This document shows, piece after piece, positions 30,642 to 39,900 of a DNA stretch of 64,000 nt. The notes under the pieces are model-generated. The model was given only the letters and a program-made list of their open reading frames with translations, searched no databases and was not told the DNA's origin. Numbering within the stretch: position 1 is the stretch's first letter; every line of letters starts with the position of its first letter. This DNA is from Chloroflexota bacterium. GTDB lineage: Bacteria; Chloroflexota; Limnocylindria; P2-11E. The stretch covers positions 3,727 through 67,726 of the forward strand of contig DAIDAP010000014.1 of assembly GCA_027310565.1 (NCBI GenBank), written 5' to 3'. A program made the position numbers and the translations under genes.

Positions 30642-31490
30642 GTGGAGCTGCTCGCGCGTTCGCTGCTCTTCGTGCCGGGCCACCGCGCGCGCATGATCGA
30701 GAAGGCGCTCGCCATGCGCGAGCTCGACGTGGCGATCCTCGACCTGGAGGACGGCGTGCCGCCGGGCGAGAAGGACGCCGCGCGCCGTCTCGTCGCGGAG
30801 GCGCTCGGCCGGCCGTCCGCGCCCGGGCGGTTCGTGCGGACGCATCGCGCGCTGAGCGACGCGTTCGTGGCCGACGTCGAGGCCGTCCGGCCGGGCGCCG
30901 CCGCGCTCGTCCTGCCCAAGGTCGAGCGGGCCGAGGAGGTGATCCTCGCCGCGGACCTGCTCGCCGAGCGCGGCCTCGCCGAGGTCGCGCTCGTCCCCTC
31001 GATCGAGAACGCGCGCGGCCTGCTGCGCGCGGCGGAGATCGCCGCCGCGTCGCCGCGCGTCGCGGGGCTGATGTTCGGCGGCGAGGACTACGCGAGCGGC
31101 CTCGGTCTGCCGGACGAGCGTGCCGACGAGGCGCTCCTCCACGCCCGATCCGCGGTCGTCGTCGCGGCCGCGGCGTCGGGTCTCGACGCTTTCGACAGCG
31201 TGTGGACCGACATCGCCGACCTGGACGGCCTCGCCGCGCACAGCGCGCAGGCCAGGCGCCTCGGGTTCGCGGGCAAGACCTGCATCCACCCGTCGCACGT
31301 CGCGGTCATCGACGCGGCGTTCACCCCCGCGTCGGCCGAGGCCGAGCGGGCGCGGCGTCTCGTCGCCGCGTTCGACGAGGGCGTGCGCGGCGGCGTCGGG
31401 GCGATCTCGTTCGAGGGCCGCATGGTCGACCGGCCGGTCGTCGAGCGCGCGAGGAGGACGCTGCGGCTCTGGGACCGAGCGCGACGCTAG
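30642..31490 (+). CDS. HpcH/HpaI aldolase / citrate-lyase β-subunit-like (CitE-like, malyl-CoA/citramalyl-CoA lyase family)
   Basis: SLLFVPGHRARMIEKA...DLEDGVPP...GGEDYASGLGL are the CitE-family signatures. Confidence 0.8.
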   Translation: MELLARSLLFVPGHRARMIEKALAMRELDVAILDLEDGVPPGEKDAARRLVAEALGRPSAPGRFVRTHRALSDAFVADVEAVRPGAAALVLPKVERAEEVILAADLLAERGLAEVALVPSIENARGLLRAAEIAAASPRVAGLMFGGEDYASGLGLPDERADEALLHARSAVVVAAAASGLDAFDSVWTDIADLDGLAAHSAQARRLGFAGKTCIHPSHVAVIDAAFTPASAEAERARRLVAAFDEGVRGGVGAISFEGRMVDRPVVERARRTLRLWDRARR

Positions 31491-32785
31491 ATCGGCGGCC
31501 GCCCGATCCCGGGCAGGCGCGCCTCCGCCCATACCGCGGCGGCGAGGAGCCGCTCGTCGTCGCCGGGGGCGGCGACGAGCTGGAGCCCGAGCGGCAGACC
31601 GTGCGCGCCGAGGCCCGTCGGGATCGTGATCGCCGGCGCGCCGGTGAGCGACCAGCGGCTGCAGAAGCGCGGATCGCCGGTCGTCTCCGGCCCCGGCGCC
31701 TCGCCCGTGGCCGGCGGCGTGAGGATCGCGTCGTACGGCGCCGCCCATGCGGCGAACGCGGCGATGAGCCGGTCGCGCGCGCGGACCGCGCCGGCGTACT
31801 CCGCGTCGCCGATGGCCGCGCCCTCGGCGAGGCGCTCGCGCGCGAGCGGGCTCACGGCGTCGGCGTGGGCGCCGATCGCGGGGAGGACCGCACGCGCGGC
31901 CTCGTGGAGCATGATCACGCGCACGATCTCGACCGCCTCGTCGAGCCCCGACGGCGGATCGGGCCAGGCGACCGGCCCCCCCGCGGCGGCGAGCGCGTCG
32001 ACGTCCGCCTGGAAGCGCTCGCGCATGTCCTCCGACGCGTGCGTCCACTCGCCGGTGCGCAGCGCCGCGAACGACGGCGCGCGGCCGCTCGCCCGCGGCG
32101 TGCGCTCAGGGTCGCCGGCGAGGATCGCCGCGACGAGCCCGGCGCCGGCGACGCTCGACGCGAGCACGCCGACGTGGTCGAGCGTGCGCGAGAACTCGAA
32201 GGCGCCGCGCGTGGAGATCCGCCCGACGGTCGGCTTGAAGCCGACGACGCCGCAGAACGCGGCGGGCCGGATGACCGATCCGTTCGTCTGCGAGCCGACC
32301 GCCGCGCCGACGACGCCCGCCGCGACGGCGGCCGCCGAGCCCATCGACGAGCCGCCCGGCGTGCGCGCGGTGTCCCACGGATTGCGCGTCGGCCCCGGCT
32401 GCAGGTACGCGAGCTCGGCGGTGACGGTCTTCCCGATCATGACCGCCCCGGCGGACTCGAGCGCGCGCACGGCGTCGGCGTCGCGGTCGGGGACGCGTCC
32501 CGCGAACGCCGCGCACCCGTGCTCGGTGGGGATGCCCGCGGTGTCGAAGATGTCCTTCACCGCGACCGGGATGCCCTCGAGCCGCCCGACCGGCTGGCCC
32601 GCGGCGCGCCGCGCGTCGGATGCCGCGGCGAGACGCCGGGCGCGCTCGGGGTCGAGCCAGGCGAACGCGTGGAGACGGGGCTCGGTCTCGTCGTACCGCG
32701 CGAGCGCGCGCTCGACGAGCGCGGCGCTGGTCAGCTCGCCGCGCGCGAGCGCGTCCGTGGTCGTGACGAGGTCGGCCGCCGGCAT
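31487..32785 (-). CDS. amidase (amidase-signature family)
   Basis: Start at MPAADLVTTTDAL (ATG revcomp at 32783-32785). AS signature GGSSMGSAAAVAAGVVGAAVGSQTNGSVIRPAAFCGVVGFKPTVGRISTRG with the Ser-cisSer-Lys triad context. The track ORF extends 177 aa upstream in Arg-rich sequence, which I reject. Confidence 0.8.
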   Translation of the reverse strand: MPAADLVTTTDALARGELTSAALVERALARYDETEPRLHAFAWLDPERARRLAAASDARRAAGQPVGRLEGIPVAVKDIFDTAGIPTEHGCAAFAGRVPDRDADAVRALESAGAVMIGKTVTAELAYLQPGPTRNPWDTARTPGGSSMGSAAAVAAGVVGAAVGSQTNGSVIRPAAFCGVVGFKPTVGRISTRGAFEFSRTLDHVGVLASSVAGAGLVAAILAGDPERTPRASGRAPSFAALRTGEWTHASEDMRERFQADVDALAAAGGPVAWPDPPSGLDEAVEIVRVIMLHEAARAVLPAIGAHADAVSPLARERLAEGAAIGDAEYAGAVRARDRLIAAFAAWAAPYDAILTPPATGEAPGPETTGDPRFCSRWSLTGAPAITIPTGLGAHGLPLGLQLVAAPGDDERLLAAAVWAEARLPGIGRPPI

Positions 32786-33441
32786 TCCGCACGCATAGTG
32801 ACGCGTGGCGCCCATCCGCGTGGCAGGCCCGGGAGGAGGCCGCGGATCCTGCGGTACCCGGCCCGGCGGAACATCGCTTCGGTGCCGAAGAACGCGTAGT
32901 CGTCCTGGAGACGCTTCGCCGCGACGCGCGGGTAGCCCTCGATCGCCGGCGCGCCGTGCGCGCCGGCATAGGCGACCGCGGCGCGCAGGAGCGCGATCGC
33001 AAGACCGCGCCCGCGGTAGCCGCGCCGGACGGTGAGGCACGGGATGACCCACGCCGGCACGTCGTCCACCGGCGGCGTCGCCCTCGAGCTCCTGATCCGC
33101 GCGTAGTCGACGCGTGGTCCGAGCGAGACGAAGGCGGCGGGCTCCCCGGCGACGTAGGCGACGAGCAGCGGCGCGTGCGACCGGCGCCGCGCGAGCCTCG
33201 CGACGATCTCGCGGCGGCGCGCGTCGACGGCCGCCGTCGGCGCCCCGGTGATGCCGAGCTCGCGCTGCTGCGCCGGCGTGAAGCGCGGGAACAGGTCCCA
33301 GCACCGTGACCCCCATGACCCGCGGGTGATGGTCTTCACGTCCTCCGCGCGCGCCGGCGAGAGCGGCCGGATCTCGAGCTCGTCGCGGGCGGCGCGCGGC
33401 ACTAGTGTCGTGACACTAGACCTTCGGCAGCCGCGCACCAC
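32731..33441 (-). CDS. GNAT family acetyltransferase (start and end uncertain)
   Basis: The central region VIPCLTVRRGYRGRGLAIALLRAAVAYAGAHGAPAIEGYP is GNAT motif A. The C-terminal about 40 aa are Arg-rich and overlap the amidase start, which suggests a shorter true product or a frameshift. Confidence 0.45.
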   Translation of the reverse strand: MVRGCRRSSVTTLVPRAARDELEIRPLSPARAEDVKTITRGSWGSRCWDLFPRFTPAQQRELGITGAPTAAVDARRREIVARLARRRSHAPLLVAYVAGEPAAFVSLGPRVDYARIRSSRATPPVDDVPAWVIPCLTVRRGYRGRGLAIALLRAAVAYAGAHGAPAIEGYPRVAAKRLQDDYAFFGTEAMFRRAGYRRIRGLLPGLPRGWAPRVTMRAECRRPTSSRPRTRSRAAS

Positions 33442-33919
33442 CGCCGCGGCGGTAGCTGACGTACAGGAGCACCAGACCGAGCGCGATGAGCGCGACCGGC
33501 CACAGCGCCGCGATCCACGACTGGTACGCGGTGCCCGCGAGCACGAGCTGCCCGCCGACGACCGCGAGGATGCCGCCCGGGATGAGCGGCCACCACTGCG
33601 TCTCGCGCCGCGTGAGCACGTTCGCGACGTAGATGCCGATGAAGCCCAGCGCGAGGCCGACCACCGGCTCGCCGCCGCTCGACGAGACCACCGCGTCCTG
33701 CCAGCCGGTCCCCACGGCGAGGCCCGCGACGATCATCGCCGGGATCATGAACGCGTACCCGCGCGTCGCGGCCCACAGGACGAAGAGGACCGCGGACACC
33801 GACGCGAGGATGATCCAAGCCGAGAGCGTGAAGACCTGGCCGGCGAGCAGGGCCAGACCGATGGCGATGAGGATGGCGCCACCGGCCCACGACGCGGTGG
33901 CGGGACGTGTCTCGCTCAT
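33416..33919 (-). CDS. hypothetical integral membrane protein (4-5 TM)
   Basis: 167 aa, strongly hydrophobic, immediately downstream of the exonuclease gene on the same strand. Confidence 0.4.
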   Translation of the reverse strand: MSETRPATASWAGGAILIAIGLALLAGQVFTLSAWIILASVSAVLFVLWAATRGYAFMIPAMIVAGLAVGTGWQDAVVSSSGGEPVVGLALGFIGIYVANVLTRRETQWWPLIPGGILAVVGGQLVLAGTAYQSWIAALWPVALIALGLVLLYVSYRRGGGARLPKV

Positions 33920-33937
33920 GACGCACCTCCTCCACGC

Positions 33938-35080
33938 TCAGGCTGCGCCGCCGCGCCGGACCTGCCAAGAGGCGTTCGCCGCGGCGGCTGTAGTGCGCGT
34001 ACCGGACGCGCAGAGGCGGCGCACCCTCGCCTCGGCCTGCGCGCGCCAGCGCGCCGACCCGAGCCCGAGCGCGAGGAGCGTCTCGAGCATCCGCACGACC
34101 CGCTCCGCCTGGCCGCGCCGCTCGAGGTGTCGCGCGTACGGGAGCGCGAGCCGGACGCGCAGCGCGTTGTCGCCGTCGCAGTACGCGCTCTCGTAGCAGG
34201 CGAACGCCGCCGCGAGCTCGCCCGTCCGCTCGAAGACGCGCGCCAGCGCGTAGGCCGCCGGCGCGTGGTCCGGCGCGCGGCCGGCGCGCGCCGCGAGGAC
34301 CGCCCGTGCGACGCGGTCGGCGATCCGTACGAGCGATACGACGTCCCGCGCGTTGTGCTCGAGCACCGGCGCGATGATCGCCTCGTCGCCCCGGCGGAGG
34401 TAGTGGAAGTACGCGTCGGGGATGAGCGATCCCGGGATGTCGCTGACGCGCCCGTCGTCGAGCACGCTCTCCTCGAGCTGCCGGAGCGTCGTCGACCCGT
34501 AGCGGTCCTTCCAGAGCCGCCGCGCCGGGTGGAGGAGATCGAGGTGCGACTCGTCCACCGTCAGCTCGCTCCGCAGCGTCATCACGAAGCGCGTCCGGAG
34601 GATCGGCAGGTCGAACGTCTTCCCGTTGTACGAGGCGCATGCGCGGAACGGCGCGAGCTCCCCCTTGAGCGTCTCGACGAACGCGGCCTCGGCGCCGAGG
34701 TCACGGAGGAGGTGCTGCCGGAGCACGAGGTCACCCGGCTCGAAGTGGGCGAGCCCGATGAGGAACACGTACGTCCCCGTGCCGCCCGAAAGGCCGGTCG
34801 TCTCGGTGTCGAGGAAGAGGATGTCGCGCCACTCCCGCGGTGGATCGCCTTTCAGGCCGAGGTGGGCCGCCAGCAGCGGATCGCACGCTCCCCTTCCGAC
34901 GACCTCCAGACCGAGATCGTCGAGCGCGATCCGCCGCTCGCGGCGCTCGAACGCGGGGCCGCTCGGCGCGCCGCGCCGGGGCGGTGCCGGCGGCGTCTCG
35001 CGCTCGCGCGGATGCTCGGTCCCGCGGAGCGCGCGGTCGCGCTCGACGATCGCCGCGATCCGGGCGCGCAGGTCGTTCAT
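33938..35080 (-). CDS. MrfB/YprB-like DEDDh 3'-5' exonuclease with C-terminal TPR-like helical domain
   Basis: Start at MNDLRARIAAIVERD (ATG revcomp ending at 35080) overlaps the helicase stop (ATGA). Exo motif I ILFLDTETTGLSGGTGTYVFLIGLA, then ...YNGKTFDLPIL... and HNARDVVSL (motif III-like). The track ORF 33938..37258 N-terminal part is off-frame relative to the helicase and I reject it. Confidence 0.65.
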   Translation of the reverse strand: MNDLRARIAAIVERDRALRGTEHPRERETPPAPPRRGAPSGPAFERRERRIALDDLGLEVVGRGACDPLLAAHLGLKGDPPREWRDILFLDTETTGLSGGTGTYVFLIGLAHFEPGDLVLRQHLLRDLGAEAAFVETLKGELAPFRACASYNGKTFDLPILRTRFVMTLRSELTVDESHLDLLHPARRLWKDRYGSTTLRQLEESVLDDGRVSDIPGSLIPDAYFHYLRRGDEAIIAPVLEHNARDVVSLVRIADRVARAVLAARAGRAPDHAPAAYALARVFERTGELAAAFACYESAYCDGDNALRVRLALPYARHLERRGQAERVVRMLETLLALGLGSARWRAQAEARVRRLCASGTRTTAAAANASWQVRRGGAA

Positions 35081-37443
35081 GCGAGGGAGAGCAGATGCGC
35101 GACGGCCTCGCGCACGTCGGGGCCGAGCGCGTACGCCGGGCCGACGCAGGACGGGCACCCCGTGCCGCAGCCGCACGCCGCCAGGTGCTCTCGGGCGCGG
35201 TCGAAGAGCGGCGACGCGCCGTTGAAGAGCCGCTCGGCGAACCCGATGCCGCCGGGCGTCATGTCGAACAGGTAGATCGTCGGGCGCTCGGTGTGCGGCG
35301 AGCGCACCTCGACGGCGAGGCCGAGGTCGTGCGGGTCGCACATGAGCAGCAGCGGCGCGAGGCCGTGCAGCAGGTTGCCCAGCCCCGCCAGCGCCACCTC
35401 GACGCGCTCGCGCGGCCATCCGGCGACGGCGCGCTCGGGGAGCGCGCACCAGAAGGACGTCGTCTGCAGCTCCTGCTCGGGCAGGTGGATCTTTCCCCAG
35501 CCGACGTTCTCGTGCGTGTACATCGTGAGCTTCTTGAAGATCGTGGCGAGCGTGCTGACGAGCACCTCGCCGTGCGCGAGGTCGAAGCCGCGCTTCGCGG
35601 CCCGCCGGTCGAGCTCGTCGATGACACGGATGCGCACCGCGAGCTCCGCCTGCGTGTAGTAGTCGACCTTCACCTCGCGCACGTACGCCTTCGCGTTCTC
35701 CCAGTCGAGGCGCTCGACCTGGAACTGCTTGGACTCGTGCAGGTAGATGGCCTGCTCGTGCAGCAGCACCTGCGCGGCGAAGCGGTCGATCTCGCCGATC
35801 ACCCGCGCCCTGCCGTCGTGGTACTCCGAGCCGATCGTGCGCGGCGCCGGCCCGGTCGTGTCCACGATGACGACGTTGTCGTTCGTCGCGGTCCGCAGCG
35901 ACGTCGTCTCGGCCGGGAACGCCTGATCGGACCAGTGGTACTTCCCGCCCGCCTCGTGGAGGATGCCCTGCTCGTCCAGGTACGCGAGCACGCCCGGCGT
36001 GTCCTCGGTGCCGAAGCGCTCGCGCGCCTCGAAGGGGATCTCGAAGGCGGCGCACTTGAGGTGGTGCACCAGCACGTGGAGGTTGTCGGGGTTCACCAGG
36101 CCCGCCTCGGGCGAGCGGTCGAGCACGTACTCGGGGTGCTGGACGACGTACTGGTCGATCGGCGAGGAGGTGGCGACGAGGAACGCGGCCGAGAGGCCGT
36201 CGCGCCGGCCGGCGCGGCCCATCTGCTGCCACGTCGAGGCGACGGTGCCGGGGTAGCCGAGGAGCACCGCCGCCTGGAGCGCGCCGATGTCGATGCCCAG
36301 CTCGAGCGCGTTCGTCGAGACGACGCCGCGCACCGAGCCATCGCGCAGACCCCGCTCGATCGCGCGGCGCTCCGACGGCAGGTAGCCGCCGCGGTAGCCG
36401 CGGATGAGATCCGGCGGCCACTGTGGCTGCGGGAAGCGCGAGCGCAGGTAGGTGAGCAGCAGCTCGGTCTCCACGCGCGAGCGGGCGAACGCGATCGTCT
36501 GCACGCCCGACGCGAGCAGCGTCGCCGCGATGTCGCGGCCGGTGAGGAGCGCGCTCCTGCGCACGCCGAGGCCGCGGTTGACGACGGGCGGGTCGACGAA
36601 CACGAGCACCTTCTCGCCGCGCGGCGCGCCCGACTCGTCGATGAGGACGACGTCCTCCTCGATGTGGCGGCGCGCGAGCTCCTCGGGGTTGGCGATGGTC
36701 GCCGAGGTGCAGATGAACACCGGATGCGACCCGTAGAACGCGCAGATGCGGCGCAGCCGGCGCAGCACGTTCGCGACGTGGCTGCCGAAGACGCCGCGGT
36801 AGGTGTGCAGCTCGTCGAGCACGACGTAGCGCAGGTTCTCGAAGAGCTTCACCCACTTGGTGTGGTGGGGGAGGATGCCGGTGTGGAGCATGTCCGGGTT
36901 GGTGATGACGACGTGCCCGGCGCTGCGGATGGCCGCGCGCACCGCGGGCGGCGTGTCGCCGTCGTAGGTGTGGGTCTTGAGCTCGATGTCCATATCCGCG
37001 GACTCGCGCTCGAGCTCCGCGAGCTGGTCCTGCGAGAGCGCCTTGGTCGGGAAGATGTAGAGCGCGCGCGCGGTCGGGTCCTTCGCGATCGCGTCGAGGA
37101 CCGGGAGGTTGTAGCAGAGCGTCTTGCCCGACGCCGTCGGCGTGACGACGACGGTGTGGCGACCGGCGCGGGTCGACTCGAGCGCCGCGGCCTGGTGCGA
37201 GTACAGCTCGCCGATGCCGCGGCGCCGGAGGGCGGCCTGGATGCGCCCGTCGAGCCACTCGGGGAACGCCACGTAGCGGGCCGGCCGTGGCGGAAGGCGC
37301 TCCCAGCGCGTCACGAGGCGCTGGAGCTCCTCGTCGCGCTGGAATCCCTCGAGGATCTGCTCGAGGCTGGTGCGCGCGGGGAATCGAACCGATGTTCTCA
37401 CAGGCGGACGAACGATATGGAACGGACGTTCGGACGTCAACAC
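35077..37443 (-). CDS. MrfA/YprA-like DEAD/DEAH-box helicase with C-terminal DUF1998 (four-Cys zinc-binding) domain
   Basis: Walker A TPTASGKTLCYNLP, DEAH-type VVLDELHTYRG, motif VI QQMGRAGRRDG, and a C-terminal CGCGTGCPSC (the DUF1998/MZB four-Cys cluster). Confidence 0.8.
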   Translation of the reverse strand: MLTSERPFHIVRPPVRTSVRFPARTSLEQILEGFQRDEELQRLVTRWERLPPRPARYVAFPEWLDGRIQAALRRRGIGELYSHQAAALESTRAGRHTVVVTPTASGKTLCYNLPVLDAIAKDPTARALYIFPTKALSQDQLAELERESADMDIELKTHTYDGDTPPAVRAAIRSAGHVVITNPDMLHTGILPHHTKWVKLFENLRYVVLDELHTYRGVFGSHVANVLRRLRRICAFYGSHPVFICTSATIANPEELARRHIEEDVVLIDESGAPRGEKVLVFVDPPVVNRGLGVRRSALLTGRDIAATLLASGVQTIAFARSRVETELLLTYLRSRFPQPQWPPDLIRGYRGGYLPSERRAIERGLRDGSVRGVVSTNALELGIDIGALQAAVLLGYPGTVASTWQQMGRAGRRDGLSAAFLVATSSPIDQYVVQHPEYVLDRSPEAGLVNPDNLHVLVHHLKCAAFEIPFEARERFGTEDTPGVLAYLDEQGILHEAGGKYHWSDQAFPAETTSLRTATNDNVVIVDTTGPAPRTIGSEYHDGRARVIGEIDRFAAQVLLHEQAIYLHESKQFQVERLDWENAKAYVREVKVDYYTQAELAVRIRVIDELDRRAAKRGFDLAHGEVLVSTLATIFKKLTMYTHENVGWGKIHLPEQELQTTSFWCALPERAVAGWPRERVEVALAGLGNLLHGLAPLLLMCDPHDLGLAVEVRSPHTERPTIYLFDMTPGGIGFAERLFNGASPLFDRAREHLAACGCGTGCPSCVGPAYALGPDVREAVAHLLSLA

Positions 37444-37486
37444 GCCGTCGCGCTGAGGCCGTGCCGCTCGCGCCGCCGGTCGGGCG

Positions 37487-39036
37487 TCAGCCGGCGCGGG
37501 CGAGGATCCCCTCGTTCGCGCCGAGCGTGAGCCGCTCCGAGATCGCGTCGCGGCCCGGATCGGTGGACAGCACGAGCCGCGTGTCCGCCACGGCGAGGTG
37601 CAGGCGCTGGGCGCGGTCGGTGAAGTTCAGGACGACGACGAGCCGCTCGCGCTCCGCGGTCCGCTCGTACGCGTACACGCCCGGGCCCGATGGGAGCACG
37701 CGATACGCGCCGCGCCGCAGCGCGTCGGAGCCGCGGCGCACGCGGACGAGCCGCCGGTAGAGCGAGAGGAGCGACGTCGGATCGCCGCGCTGGGCCGCGA
37801 CGCTCACGCGGCCCAGATCGGCGGCGACCGGCAGCCACGGGTCGGCGCTCGTGAAGCCCGCGTTCGGCGAGGCGTCCCACTGCATCGGTGTCCGCTCGCC
37901 GTCGCGTCCGACGACGTCGACGACGCGGTCCGCCGGGATGGGGACGTTGGTCATCCCGATCTCCTCGCCGTAGTACAGGAACGGCGTGCCCCGCAGCGTC
38001 AGCAGCAGCATCGCCGCGACGCGCGCGCGCTCGACGCCGTACCGCGTCGCGTGCCGGACGACGTCGTGGTTCGAGAGCGTGGCGTTCGGCCAGGCGTGCG
38101 CGGGAAGGAGCCGCTCCCACTCGTCGACGACGCCGCGGAAGCCCGCGGCCGACCAGGGCTGGCGCAGCAGGTGGAAGTTGAACGGCATCTGCAGCTCGTC
38201 GTCCCGGCCGTAGTAGCGGACGAGCCGCCTCAGGTCGCGCACGTGCACCTCGCCGACGGCCATGCGGTCGGGATACTCGTCGATCACGCGGCGCCAGCGG
38301 CGGTGCACCTCGTGGACCTCGTCGAGGTCGCGGTCGCGCGGCGCGGGCCGCCCGAAGACGCGCACGCGCGGATTGCCGCGCAGCCGCGGGTCCTTCACCA
38401 GACCGTGCGCGACGTCGACGCGGAAGCCGTCCACGCCGCGGTCCAGCCAGAAGCGCATGACGCCGTCCATCGCCGCGCGCACGCCCTCGTTCCACCAGTT
38501 GAGGTCGGGCTGCCCCGGCAGGAAGTGGTGCAGGTACCACTCGCCGGTGCGCTCGTCGCGGGTCCACGCCGGGCCGACGCCCTCGAACCAGCTCCGCCAG
38601 TTGTTCGGCGGCGCGCCGTTCCGCCCCGCTCGCCACACGTACCAGTCGCGCCTGGGGTTGTCAGTGCTCGATCGCGACTCGACGAACCAGGGGTGCTCGT
38701 CGGAGGTGTGGTTGGGGACCAGGTCGACGATCACGCGGATCCCTCGGCGGTGCGCCTCCGCGAGCAGCCGGTCGAAGTCCGCGAGCGTCCCGAACGCCGG
38801 GTCGACGTCGCGGTAGTCCGAGACGTCGTAGCCGAAGTCCTTCATCGGCGAGCGGTAGAAGGGGCTGAGCCAGATCGCGTCGATGCCCAGGGAATCGTCG
38901 CGACCGTTCAGGTGGTCGAGCCGGGCGGTGATGCCCGGCAGGTCGCCCACCCCGTCGCCATTCGAGTCCTGGAAGGACCGCGGGTAGATCTGGTAGAAGA
39001 CGCCGTCCCGCCACCAGCTCCCGCTCACCGTACCCA
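37487..39036 (-). CDS. GH13 α-glucosidase / oligo-1,6-glucosidase-like glycoside hydrolase
   Basis: N-terminal WWRDGVFYQIYPRSFQDSNGDGVGDLPGI, then catalytic blocks DLVPNHTS, GFRVDVAH, YYGEEIGM and SNHD. Start set at a GTG just before SGSWW. The track ORF's extra 100 aa upstream is rejected. Confidence 0.8.
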
Positions 39037-39094
39037 CACGGTACCGAAGCCGGGCACACCACGTGCACGAGCACGCGGACAGGAGGTGGCCGGC

Positions 39095-39355
39095 ATGGCC
39101 AAGCTGGACGCGAAGGCGGCGGACCGGCTCGACCGGGACGAGTTCGCGTACATCGATAGCGAGGGTGGCGAGCACCTGCCGATCAACGACGCCGCGCACA
39201 TCCGCAACGCGGTGGCGCGCTGGAGCCAGACCGAGTTCGAATCCGAGGCGAAGAAGAAGGAGGCGCGCACCAAGATCCTCGCGGCGGCGAAGCGGCACGG
39301 CATCGAGATCGACCCCGACGACAGGATCGTGAGGGGCAGGCACGACAAGGGATGA
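39095..39355 (+). CDS. small hypothetical protein
   Basis: 87 aa MAKLDAKAADRLDRDEFAYIDSEGGEHLPINDAAHIRNAVARWSQTEF... preceded by a strong AGGAGGTG RBS at 39081-39088. The 37598..39355 track ORF is otherwise antisense to the glucosidase. Confidence 0.45.
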   Translation: MAKLDAKAADRLDRDEFAYIDSEGGEHLPINDAAHIRNAVARWSQTEFESEAKKKEARTKILAAAKRHGIEIDPDDRIVRGRHDKG

Positions 39356-39432
39356 CGTCGGACCGCGAGGCCGCGTTGAAGGGCGAGACGCCGCGGGAGC
39401 GCGAGGTGCGCTCGGAGCGCTAGCCTCGTCGC

Positions 39433-39900
39433 GTGAAGGACGCCGCGCTCCAGGACCGCTACGCGCCGAACGGCGCGTGCTTCGGCTGCGGCCCCGCGAA
39501 CGAGCGCGGCCTGCGCATCAAGAGCCATCCGCGCGAGGACGGCAGCGTGGTGACGACGTTCCACGCGCGGAAGGAGCACGAGGCGTACGACGGTGCGCTG
39601 TCCGGCGGCATCATCGGCACGCTCATGGACTGCCACTCGAACTGGACCGCGACCTACCACCTGATGCGGAAGAGCGGCGCGGACACGCCGCCCTGCACGG
39701 TGACCGCCGAGTACGCCGTGAAGATGCGGCGGCCGACGCCGACGGCGGGCCCGATCGAGATCGTGGCGCGGCCGGTCGAGGTCTCCGAGGACCGCGCGAC
39801 GGTCGAGGCGGAGCTCAGCGCGGGCGGCAGGGTGTGCGCGACGGCGCGCGGCACGTTCGTCGCGGTGAAGCCCGGCCACCCCGCCTACCACCGCTGGTAG
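39433..39900 (+). CDS. PaaI/4HBT-family hotdog-fold thioesterase
   Basis: 155 aa. GALSGGIIGTLMDCHSNWTATY is the PaaI-type active-site region. Confidence 0.6.
   Translation: MKDAALQDRYAPNGACFGCGPANERGLRIKSHPREDGSVVTTFHARKEHEAYDGALSGGIIGTLMDCHSNWTATYHLMRKSGADTPPCTVTAEYAVKMRRPTPTAGPIEIVARPVEVSEDRATVEAELSAGGRVCATARGTFVAVKPGHPAYHRW

Follow-up and report, generated by a model that had tools for sequence, protein, structure and literature searches.

The window analyzed here is a stretch of 64,000 nucleotides (nt) from a Chloroflexota bacterium (contig DAIDAP010000014.1 of assembly GCA_027310565.1). Its minus strand carries in succession the genes of an MrfA-type helicase (mrfA), an MrfB-type exonuclease (mrfB), a small membrane protein, a GNAT and an amidase. 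On balance, we take this locus to be a chromosomal, damage-inducible MrfAB excision-repair operon that has gained small-molecule enzymes at its 3' end. The MrfAB excision pathway, which works without UvrABC, was defined only recently, and its lesion specificity, partners and regulation are still being worked out. The MrfAB core is already known. The class-specific extension by an amidase and a GNAT is undescribed in the MrfAB/YprA literature searched, in agreement with the sequence-only reading, an earlier interpretation of the bare DNA, in which such an extension was not recognized as described.

Gene organization of the locus

As the GC content of the window is about 73%, raw lists of open reading frames (ORFs) are crowded with spurious frames. 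Genes were called with a frame plot of the GC content at third codon positions (GC3) and a start picker using the log-odds of GC3 over GC2, the value at second positions, and these calls agree with those of the databases. The five co-directional minus-strand genes are real coding sequences with an in-frame GC3 of 0.92-0.99. The deduced lengths of 774, 380, 167, 223 and 432 amino acids (aa) are also found in the stored calls of two metagenome contigs that encode exactly these proteins. The first gene, mrfA (35077-37401), encodes a superfamily 2 DEAD/DEAH helicase with a winged helix and a four-Cys MZB (DUF1998) module, and mrfB (33938-35080) encodes a DEDDh 3'-5' exonuclease of the RNase_H_2/YprB type with a probably helical C-terminal tail. 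The membrane gene (33416-33919) gives a small polytopic protein with 5-6 transmembrane segments, followed by the gene of a GNAT-fold acyl-CoA N-acyltransferase (32731-33402) and that of an amidase-signature enzyme with a Ser-cisSer-Lys center (31487-32785).

The genes are closely packed. The stop codon of mrfA and the start codon of mrfB share the sequence ATGA, resulting in a 4-nt overlap, and mrfB is separated from the membrane gene by 18 nt, with the Shine-Dalgarno sequence GGAGGAGG. A gap of 13 nt lies between the membrane gene and the GNAT gene, and the GNAT and amidase genes overlap by 55 nt. The five same-strand genes, the ATGA coupling, the 18-nt gap, overlapping junctions and the roughly five membrane-spanning segments (5-6 hydrophobic segments by our count) had all been pointed out in the sequence-only reading. 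An overlap of the membrane and GNAT genes results only with the longest-ORF start of the GNAT gene at 33441.

The helicase and exonuclease as an MrfA/MrfB pair

The helicase matches YprA/MrfA (PDB 6ZNP), the helicase of the Bacillus subtilis mitomycin C repair pair, over its full length (E 8.5e-268, 893.6 bits, residues 28-770 against 19-746) and has the same domain order, namely RecA1, RecA2, winged helix and a four-Cys OB-CON-MZB module. The Pfam search assigned the domains DEAD (3.1e-33), Helicase_C (1.4e-12), WHD_HRQ1 (6.1e-09) and MZB/DUF1998 (7.2e-19), and the C-terminus, ACGCGTGCPSC, holds the four cysteines of the MZB (DUF1998) module. The exonuclease belongs to PF13482 (1.7e-34), and its sole match in the PDB is MrfB (8UN9, 1.9e-32), in an alignment spanning the core. 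The DEDDh residues D91, E93, D157, H242 and D246 are invariant in 23 orthologues, and a tail of about 110 aa is conserved at the C-terminus. Similar to B. subtilis MrfB (YprB), the enzyme is of the DEDDh PF13482 type with a C-terminal tail that is probably helical, and the two genes are adjacent and co-directional as in Bacillus. Compared to the Bacillus enzyme, however, the identity of the core exonuclease is low and the TPR is undetected by Pfam, with no TPR family matching the window exonuclease at E <= 0.01. A few of the orthologues carry the TPR families PF13176, PF13424 or PF14559. Based on the full-length match to 6ZNP, the match to 8UN9 and the Pfam domains, helicase and exonuclease are assigned as an MrfA/MrfB orthologue pair, in line with the architecture proposed in the sequence-only reading. 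According to the MrfAB literature, the function of MrfA in distant species may differ.

For each of the proteins, close homologues are found in Chloroflexota metagenome-assembled genomes named Candidatus Limnocylindria, which corrects the earlier placing of the locus among Actinobacteria. Scanning one genome per GTDB species yielded 69 loci, all in the Limnocylindria clade, with gene presence determined by tblastn. Their identities to the window range from 56 to 83% for the exonuclease and from 69 to 93% for the helicase. When a library clustered at 50% identity was searched, the Limnocylindria MrfB formed one full-length representative at 581 bits, and the next full-length sequences scored about 195 bits. 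It is a discrete, class-level clade. A search of a plasmid collection with the exonuclease gave three weak Bacillota matches, and the contexts examined for two of them (H1 and H2) were uninformative or unannotated.

The top NCBIfam model for the helicase is TIGR03817 ('helicase/secretion neighbourhood DEAH-box helicase'), whose 664 bits stay under the cutoff of 874, and Lhr-type models such as TIGR04121 (145 bits) match as well. Taken by themselves, these matches would suit a housekeeping Lhr-type or YprA-only (SftH-like) helicase that stands next to an exonuclease by accident, a reading that we find hardly credible. The Lhr models cover residues 79-477 only and are far from their cutoffs (145 bits against 850 for TIGR04121, 69.7 against 1496 for PRK09751), and an Lhr identity was rejected. 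The exonuclease gene overlaps that of the helicase by 4 nt in the window and follows it in every one of the 69 loci with upstream sequence present. Mycobacterium smegmatis SftH, a YprA-only helicase of the TIGR03817 type, belongs to the same helicase family, has the same DUF1998 module and falls in the repair branch of the YprA tree. However, genes of its type have no conserved MrfB partner by the definition of the YprA-family survey, whereas the window has such a partner overlapping the helicase stop. A housekeeping Lhr helicase lacking the exonuclease, which the sequence-only reading had named as the finding that would overturn it, is thus at odds with the partial Lhr matches and the partner in place.

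A defense function was considered in addition. The window helicase has its YprA-family core and DUF1998 module in common with DISARM DrmA/DrmB, Druantia DruE and Dpd DpdJ, and the PADLOC models SngC, BrxH and DruE match its core with E values from 1e-42 to 1e-29. These matches, like those of DrmA and DpdJ, are limited to the generic RecA-like core, DrmA reaches at most 62.8 bits in PADLOC and 15 bits in NCBIfam (cutoff 999), and the other four proteins of the locus are unmatched in PADLOC. The BrxA-like or zinc modules inserted in defense helicases are absent here, as are DrmB, DrmC and methylase partners, a PLD nuclease and a separate DUF1998 gene. The helicase instead matches the repair helicase MrfA along its entire length and is paired with MrfB, a marker of the repair branch. 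In the YprA-family survey, MrfB-paired helicases make up a DNA-repair branch apart from that of DISARM, Dpd and Druantia. In contrast to the patchy occurrence of a defense island, the locus shows stable vertical inheritance across the class together with a LexA-type operator. A variant of DISARM, Druantia or Dpd, which the sequence-only reading had kept in view, is therefore very improbable and was rejected for its partial core matches and want of signature partners. Even taken together, the defense and Lhr readings deserve very little belief.

A tandem LexA-type operator at the mrfA promoter

Only one promoter-like site was found in the region 31000-39700, with 0.1 expected. It is a sigma-70-like promoter at 37412-37440 on the minus strand, with TTGACG at -35, a spacer of 17 nt and TATCGT at -10. 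The distance of 10 nt from its end to the GTG at 37401 implies that mrfA is leaderless or has a very short leader. The longest ORF of the helicase (35077-37443) would encode 788 aa, as described together with its four-Cys end in the sequence-only reading. Since the sole promoter-like site lies inside the extra 14 codons of this ORF and the gene callers choose 37401, the GTG at 37401 is the likely start of mrfA, and the longer ORF is probably 14 codons too long.

The spacer between the -35 and -10 elements is filled by a GAAC-N4-GTTC palindrome, SOS box 1 (37420-37431, GAACGTCCGTTC on the minus strand), a putative LexA operator. SOS box 2 (37386-37397, GAACATCGGTTC on the minus strand) lies 34 nt downstream of box 1 and occupies codons 2-6 of mrfA. 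In a scan of the 64-kb window with a position weight matrix (PWM) made from orthologous box sites, only these two boxes reached the threshold of 13, box 1 with a score of 24.2. Box 2 contains the sole GTT among the 150 Val codons and the sole AGA among the 206 Arg codons of the five genes, compared to a background of 4.3% A/T-ending codons. Therefore, the DNA itself is under selection at this site, not the peptide alone.

The boxes are conserved in the relatives, box 1 at an unchanged position. The helicase 5' end together with 150 nt or more of upstream sequence is available for 50 species loci. Every one of these has one or more exact GAAC-N4-GTTC boxes no farther than 200 nt from the mrfA start, and 41 of them carry a pair of boxes at a spacing of 31-35 nt. 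Upstream of the helicase, 36 of 50 related loci show a TTGAC-N17-19-TAnnnT promoter pattern. Exact boxes are concentrated at this place, as about 95 of the 103 present in 797 kb of Limnocylindria loci sit at the mrfA start, compared to 7 exact boxes in 657 kb of the distant MrfB loci described below. In Firmicutes and Actinobacteria, LexA recognizes the site GAAC-N4-GTTC, and variants of it are reported from Chloroflexi (PMC4951493). We infer that the mrfA promoter is repressed by LexA. The conservation of the boxes in all 50 relatives implies that mrfAB is an SOS gene in Limnocylindria, which would extend the GAAC-N4-GTTC box to an uncultured class of Chloroflexota. For Bacillus MrfAB, the literature searched makes no mention of LexA control, and the tandem LexA-type operator of mrfAB, which the sequence-only reading had not mentioned, is undescribed in the MrfAB/YprA literature searched.

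Outside the class, a GAAC-N4-GTTC box was seen at 2 of 21 distant mrfA loci, which is weak evidence, as LexA motifs differ between phyla. Motifs of lexA, recA, uvrA, uvrB, ruvB, recN and dinB were found neither in the window nor in the gathered Limnocylindria locus DNA. The divergent neighbors of mrfA (clusters c7, c22, c41 and c18) were considered as co-regulated SOS genes and dropped, as they vary between loci. At loci L004, L005 and L011 (4349-5716), and also at L076, a 455-aa ORF with a weak match to the Pfam family Cas12f1-like_TNB (TnpB-type) is inserted between the twin boxes and the helicase, leaving the double box by the divergent gene and one box at the helicase.

Conservation of the amidase and GNAT genes in Limnocylindria

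The amidase gene is present in 62 of the 69 loci, always on the same strand and at most 3.2 kb downstream of mrfB, with 52 of the 62 within 1 kb. Of the seven other loci, L077, L011, L032 and L022 lie on contigs that end before the position that the amidase takes in relatives of like arrangement. Over the informative species loci, an amidase stands behind mrfB in about 95%. The GNAT gene is found in 34 of the 69 loci. The exonuclease gene is followed directly by the amidase in 32 loci (a few of which do hold a GNAT missed by the gene caller), by GNAT and amidase in 18, and by two GNATs and the amidase in 2. In another 10 loci genes of the opposite strand are inserted before the amidase, and the order membrane gene, GNAT, amidase occurs once, in the window.

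Where the genes are neighbors, they overlap. The median junctions are -28 nt from exonuclease to GNAT, -53 nt from GNAT to amidase and -73 nt from exonuclease to amidase, so that the GNAT orthologues of the relatives directly overlap mrfB. Both the GNATs and the amidases are orthologous, with identities that follow that of the exonuclease. As a control for synteny, the commonest flanking gene cluster within 3 kb was counted and was present in 18 of 39 loci upstream and 25 of 40 downstream. In the helicase tree, the amidase occurs in both major clades. The GNAT is found mainly in one of them, with scattered occurrences in the second, and both genes are missing from the outgroup L072. The order helicase, exonuclease, GNAT, amidase is repeated in other metagenome contigs with differing flanks.

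Two variants of the arrangement were also observed. At L003 and L031 (8908-10231) and at L010 (4342-5609), tandem paralogous GNATs, 59.5% identical in L003, lie between mrfB and the amidase, which is a local duplication of the accessory gene. At L082 (7703-8116 and 9500-9853) and the equivalent positions of L083, same-strand ORFs of 137 and 117 aa without a Pfam match are placed between GNAT and amidase and after the amidase, a case of gene accretion in the operon.

The amidase and GNAT as probable small-molecule enzymes

The amidase belongs to PF01425 (5.7e-77), and its motifs VKD, GGSS and GSxxRPA, which supply the Lys, the cis-Ser and the Ser, are invariant or nearly so in 57 orthologues. 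The best solved relatives are malonamidase E2 (1OCK, 4.9e-56), the Thermus protein 2DC0 and 6C62, which is labelled as a biuret hydrolase. The similarity to these enzymes of about 410-435 aa is full-length (E 5e-56 to 1e-47), with the motifs conserved. Urethanases and GatA are more distant solved relatives, and the protein stays under every NCBIfam equivalog cutoff. Together, these data point to an active small-molecule amide hydrolase rather than a DNA enzyme. For none of the malonamidase-type enzymes is a link to DNA repair genes described, in contrast to the gene order of the window.

The GNAT matches PF00583 (4e-07) and has a conserved motif A (RRGYRGRGLA). Its N-terminal motif RGxWGxxCWDL is conserved and unusual, and the subfamily is uncharacterized. 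The sequence gave no match in the PDB. Searching the PDB with the AlphaFold model (pLDDT 73.8) by Foldseek returned generic GNATs (E about 1e-6, TM-score about 0.5), with no clue to a specific subfamily or substrate.

The membrane gene as an insertion

The membrane protein of the window has 108 homologues and matches no Pfam family above threshold. Some of the homologues carry PF18917 and PF22570, which are presumably LiaI/LiaF-type transmembrane regions. In other genomes, the gene resides elsewhere. Homologues at 63%, 53% and 41% identity follow an S4-domain gene, the latter two adjoining serS (seryl-tRNA synthetase), and one at 44% identity lies among toxin-antitoxin genes. Behind mrfB, the membrane gene was seen in the window and the 84%-identical locus L167 alone, and tblastn detected it in none of the 69 species loci. 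A role of the membrane protein as a conserved third component was rejected, based on the contexts of its homologues and its absence from the species loci. The gene is best classed as a recent, lineage-specific insertion between mrfB and the GNAT gene that has no conserved link to the system.

In L167 (2056-2190), the order is mrfB, membrane gene, a remnant of the GNAT gene comprising its last 70 nt or so, and amidase. Therefore, the GNAT is dispensable and the locus is in flux; the amidase is kept where the GNAT is deleted. In the window, a perfect 8-bp inverted repeat (CTAGTGTC-AC-GACACTAG, 33402-33419) marks the junction between the membrane and GNAT genes, including the stop codon of the former and the first base of the start codon of the latter. 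The repeat is unusually AT-rich for this genome and may represent an insertion junction or scar, or a small hairpin.

Pathway component or passenger

The linkage was followed outside the class by aligning 40 MrfB representatives (35-47% identity) and scanning metagenome contigs with the alignment. This yielded 80 distant MrfB loci (L084-L163) with GC contents from 0.34 to 0.74, of which 57 have at least 1.5 kb downstream of mrfB. Homologues of the amidase, the GNAT or the membrane gene were found in none of the 80 loci (tblastn, E < 0.05). The amidase/GNAT extension is therefore specific to the class, and a linkage confined to one class could be due to inheritance of the gene order and not to function. 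Of the three downstream genes whose conservation with the pair the sequence-only reading had put forward for comparison, the amidase (62/69) and, in part, the GNAT (34/69) are conserved, the membrane gene is not, and the association stops at the class boundary. Of the 45 distant loci in which the upstream sequence extends beyond 2.6 kb, only 21 have MrfA beside MrfB, indicating that many MrfB-type exonucleases are encoded without a nearby helicase.

The absence of the extension from the distant loci also fits a second account, in which amidase and GNAT are passenger genes. They would have been captured downstream of mrfB in the ancestor of the class and be metabolically unrelated to repair. 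Inheritance and reliance on the upstream promoter, not a shared function, would hold them in place. We regard this account as quite possible, though less probable than a repair operon that gained small-molecule enzymes. Several findings speak for it or weigh against the operon proposed here. The locus also takes unrelated insertions, including the membrane gene, DUF3224, TerC and helix-turn-helix genes, the 137-aa ORF and the TnpB-like gene. The GNAT has been lost repeatedly, is missing in half of the species and is deleted in L167, and in three loci (L013, L040 and L072) mrfAB lacks an amidase within 2-2.9 kb. Genes of the opposite strand stand between mrfB and the amidase in about 10 loci, and in operons interrupted like this neither the amidase nor the GNAT has a box of its own (PWM of at least 13). 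The damage-inducibility of the amidase is therefore not always kept. Furthermore, the nearest solved relatives of the amidase are ordinary metabolic amidases of small-molecule catabolism, LexA binding is deduced from the motif alone, and co-transcription is deduced from gene spacing only.

The passenger account is opposed by the persistence of the gene block. The block of mrfA, mrfB and amidase is found in 62 of 69 loci, whereas any flanking gene is shared by at most 63% of the loci with room for it. This block is conserved across helicase divergence down to 69% identity, and overlapping junctions are maintained. Even after insertions the amidase stays within 3.2 kb and on the same strand, and it is kept when the neighboring GNAT is deleted. 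If amidase and GNAT are nevertheless passengers, the locus would provide a clean case of stepwise operon growth behind an SOS promoter, with the amidase acquired first, followed by gain and loss of the GNAT and then by insertion of the membrane gene.

Based on the operator, the gene order and the enzyme families, we propose a route for the damage-inducible MrfAB operon. In the repressed state, LexA would bind the two boxes and shut off the mrfA promoter. Upon DNA damage, cleavage of LexA stimulated by RecA would allow the whole string of genes to be transcribed. MrfA, a 3'-5' translocase, would unwind the lesion-bearing strand, and MrfB would degrade this strand in the 3'-5' direction, in keeping with the model for Bacillus. 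The amidase, and the GNAT in species that have it, would be co-induced small-molecule enzymes, consistent with relatives that act on malonamate or carboxybiuret-type amides and not on DNA. In the weakest step of the scheme, hydrolysis or acylation of a genotoxin or of a released adduct would be their most likely role, comparable to that of YafP in the dinB operon. A role in dealing with a small-molecule adduct had been raised in the sequence-only reading, and the conserved operator lends this idea some indirect support.

A stronger version, in which the amidase, often together with the GNAT, is a true component of a LexA-induced MrfAB pathway of three or four enzymes, is put forward only tentatively, and we consider it rather unlikely. 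Such an amidase could inactivate a lesion-causing genotoxin that bears an amide or carbamate, or act on the adduct or oligonucleotide that MrfAB sets free. According to the authors of the MrfB study, the TPR domain of MrfB may bind an unknown partner (PMC11194089), and the amidase might dock on the MrfB TPR tail. If the amidase does belong to the pathway, it would become the first accessory enzyme to be placed in the MrfAB route and would hint at the natural substrate of that route. The locus raises the hypothesis that repair and chemical neutralization of a genotoxin are co-induced, and it specifies the genes, the operator and the taxon concerned. For annotation, the taxon is corrected and the membrane protein is dropped from the putative system.

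Comparison with known systems

Compared to Bacillus MrfAB, the window operon belongs to a high-GC Chloroflexota class and runs on into an amidase with or without a GNAT, an arrangement that is undescribed for Bacillus; the YprA-family survey mentions no association with an amidase or acetyltransferase. The E. coli operon dinB-yafN-yafO-yafP resembles the window in being LexA-controlled and variable in gene content and in combining a DNA-transaction enzyme with a putative GNAT acetyltransferase. In that SOS operon, the putative acetyltransferase YafP modulates nitroaromatic genotoxins and is directed at small molecules, not at DNA (PMC3105422). However, the DNA enzyme there is Pol IV, whereas the window encodes a helicase and an exonuclease, and the E. 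coli operon has no amidase. The likeness of YafP to the window GNAT is a functional analogy only, a sequence relationship being no part of the comparison.

Flanking genes

No terminator-like site was found in the region 31000-39700. At the 3' end, the amidase gene on the minus strand converges with a HpcH/HpaI aldolase/citrate-lyase-like gene on the plus strand (30642-31490), and the two stops overlap by 4 nt (31487-31490), leaving no space for an intrinsic terminator. At the other end, 85 nt upstream of mrfA, the same strand carries an alpha-amylase-family gene (37487-39343, minus strand; PF00128, 2.9e-126), of which a close homologue (67-72% identity) is located upstream in 4 of the 69 species loci. 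This gene is probably outside the mrfAB unit, since the SOS promoter separates it from mrfA.

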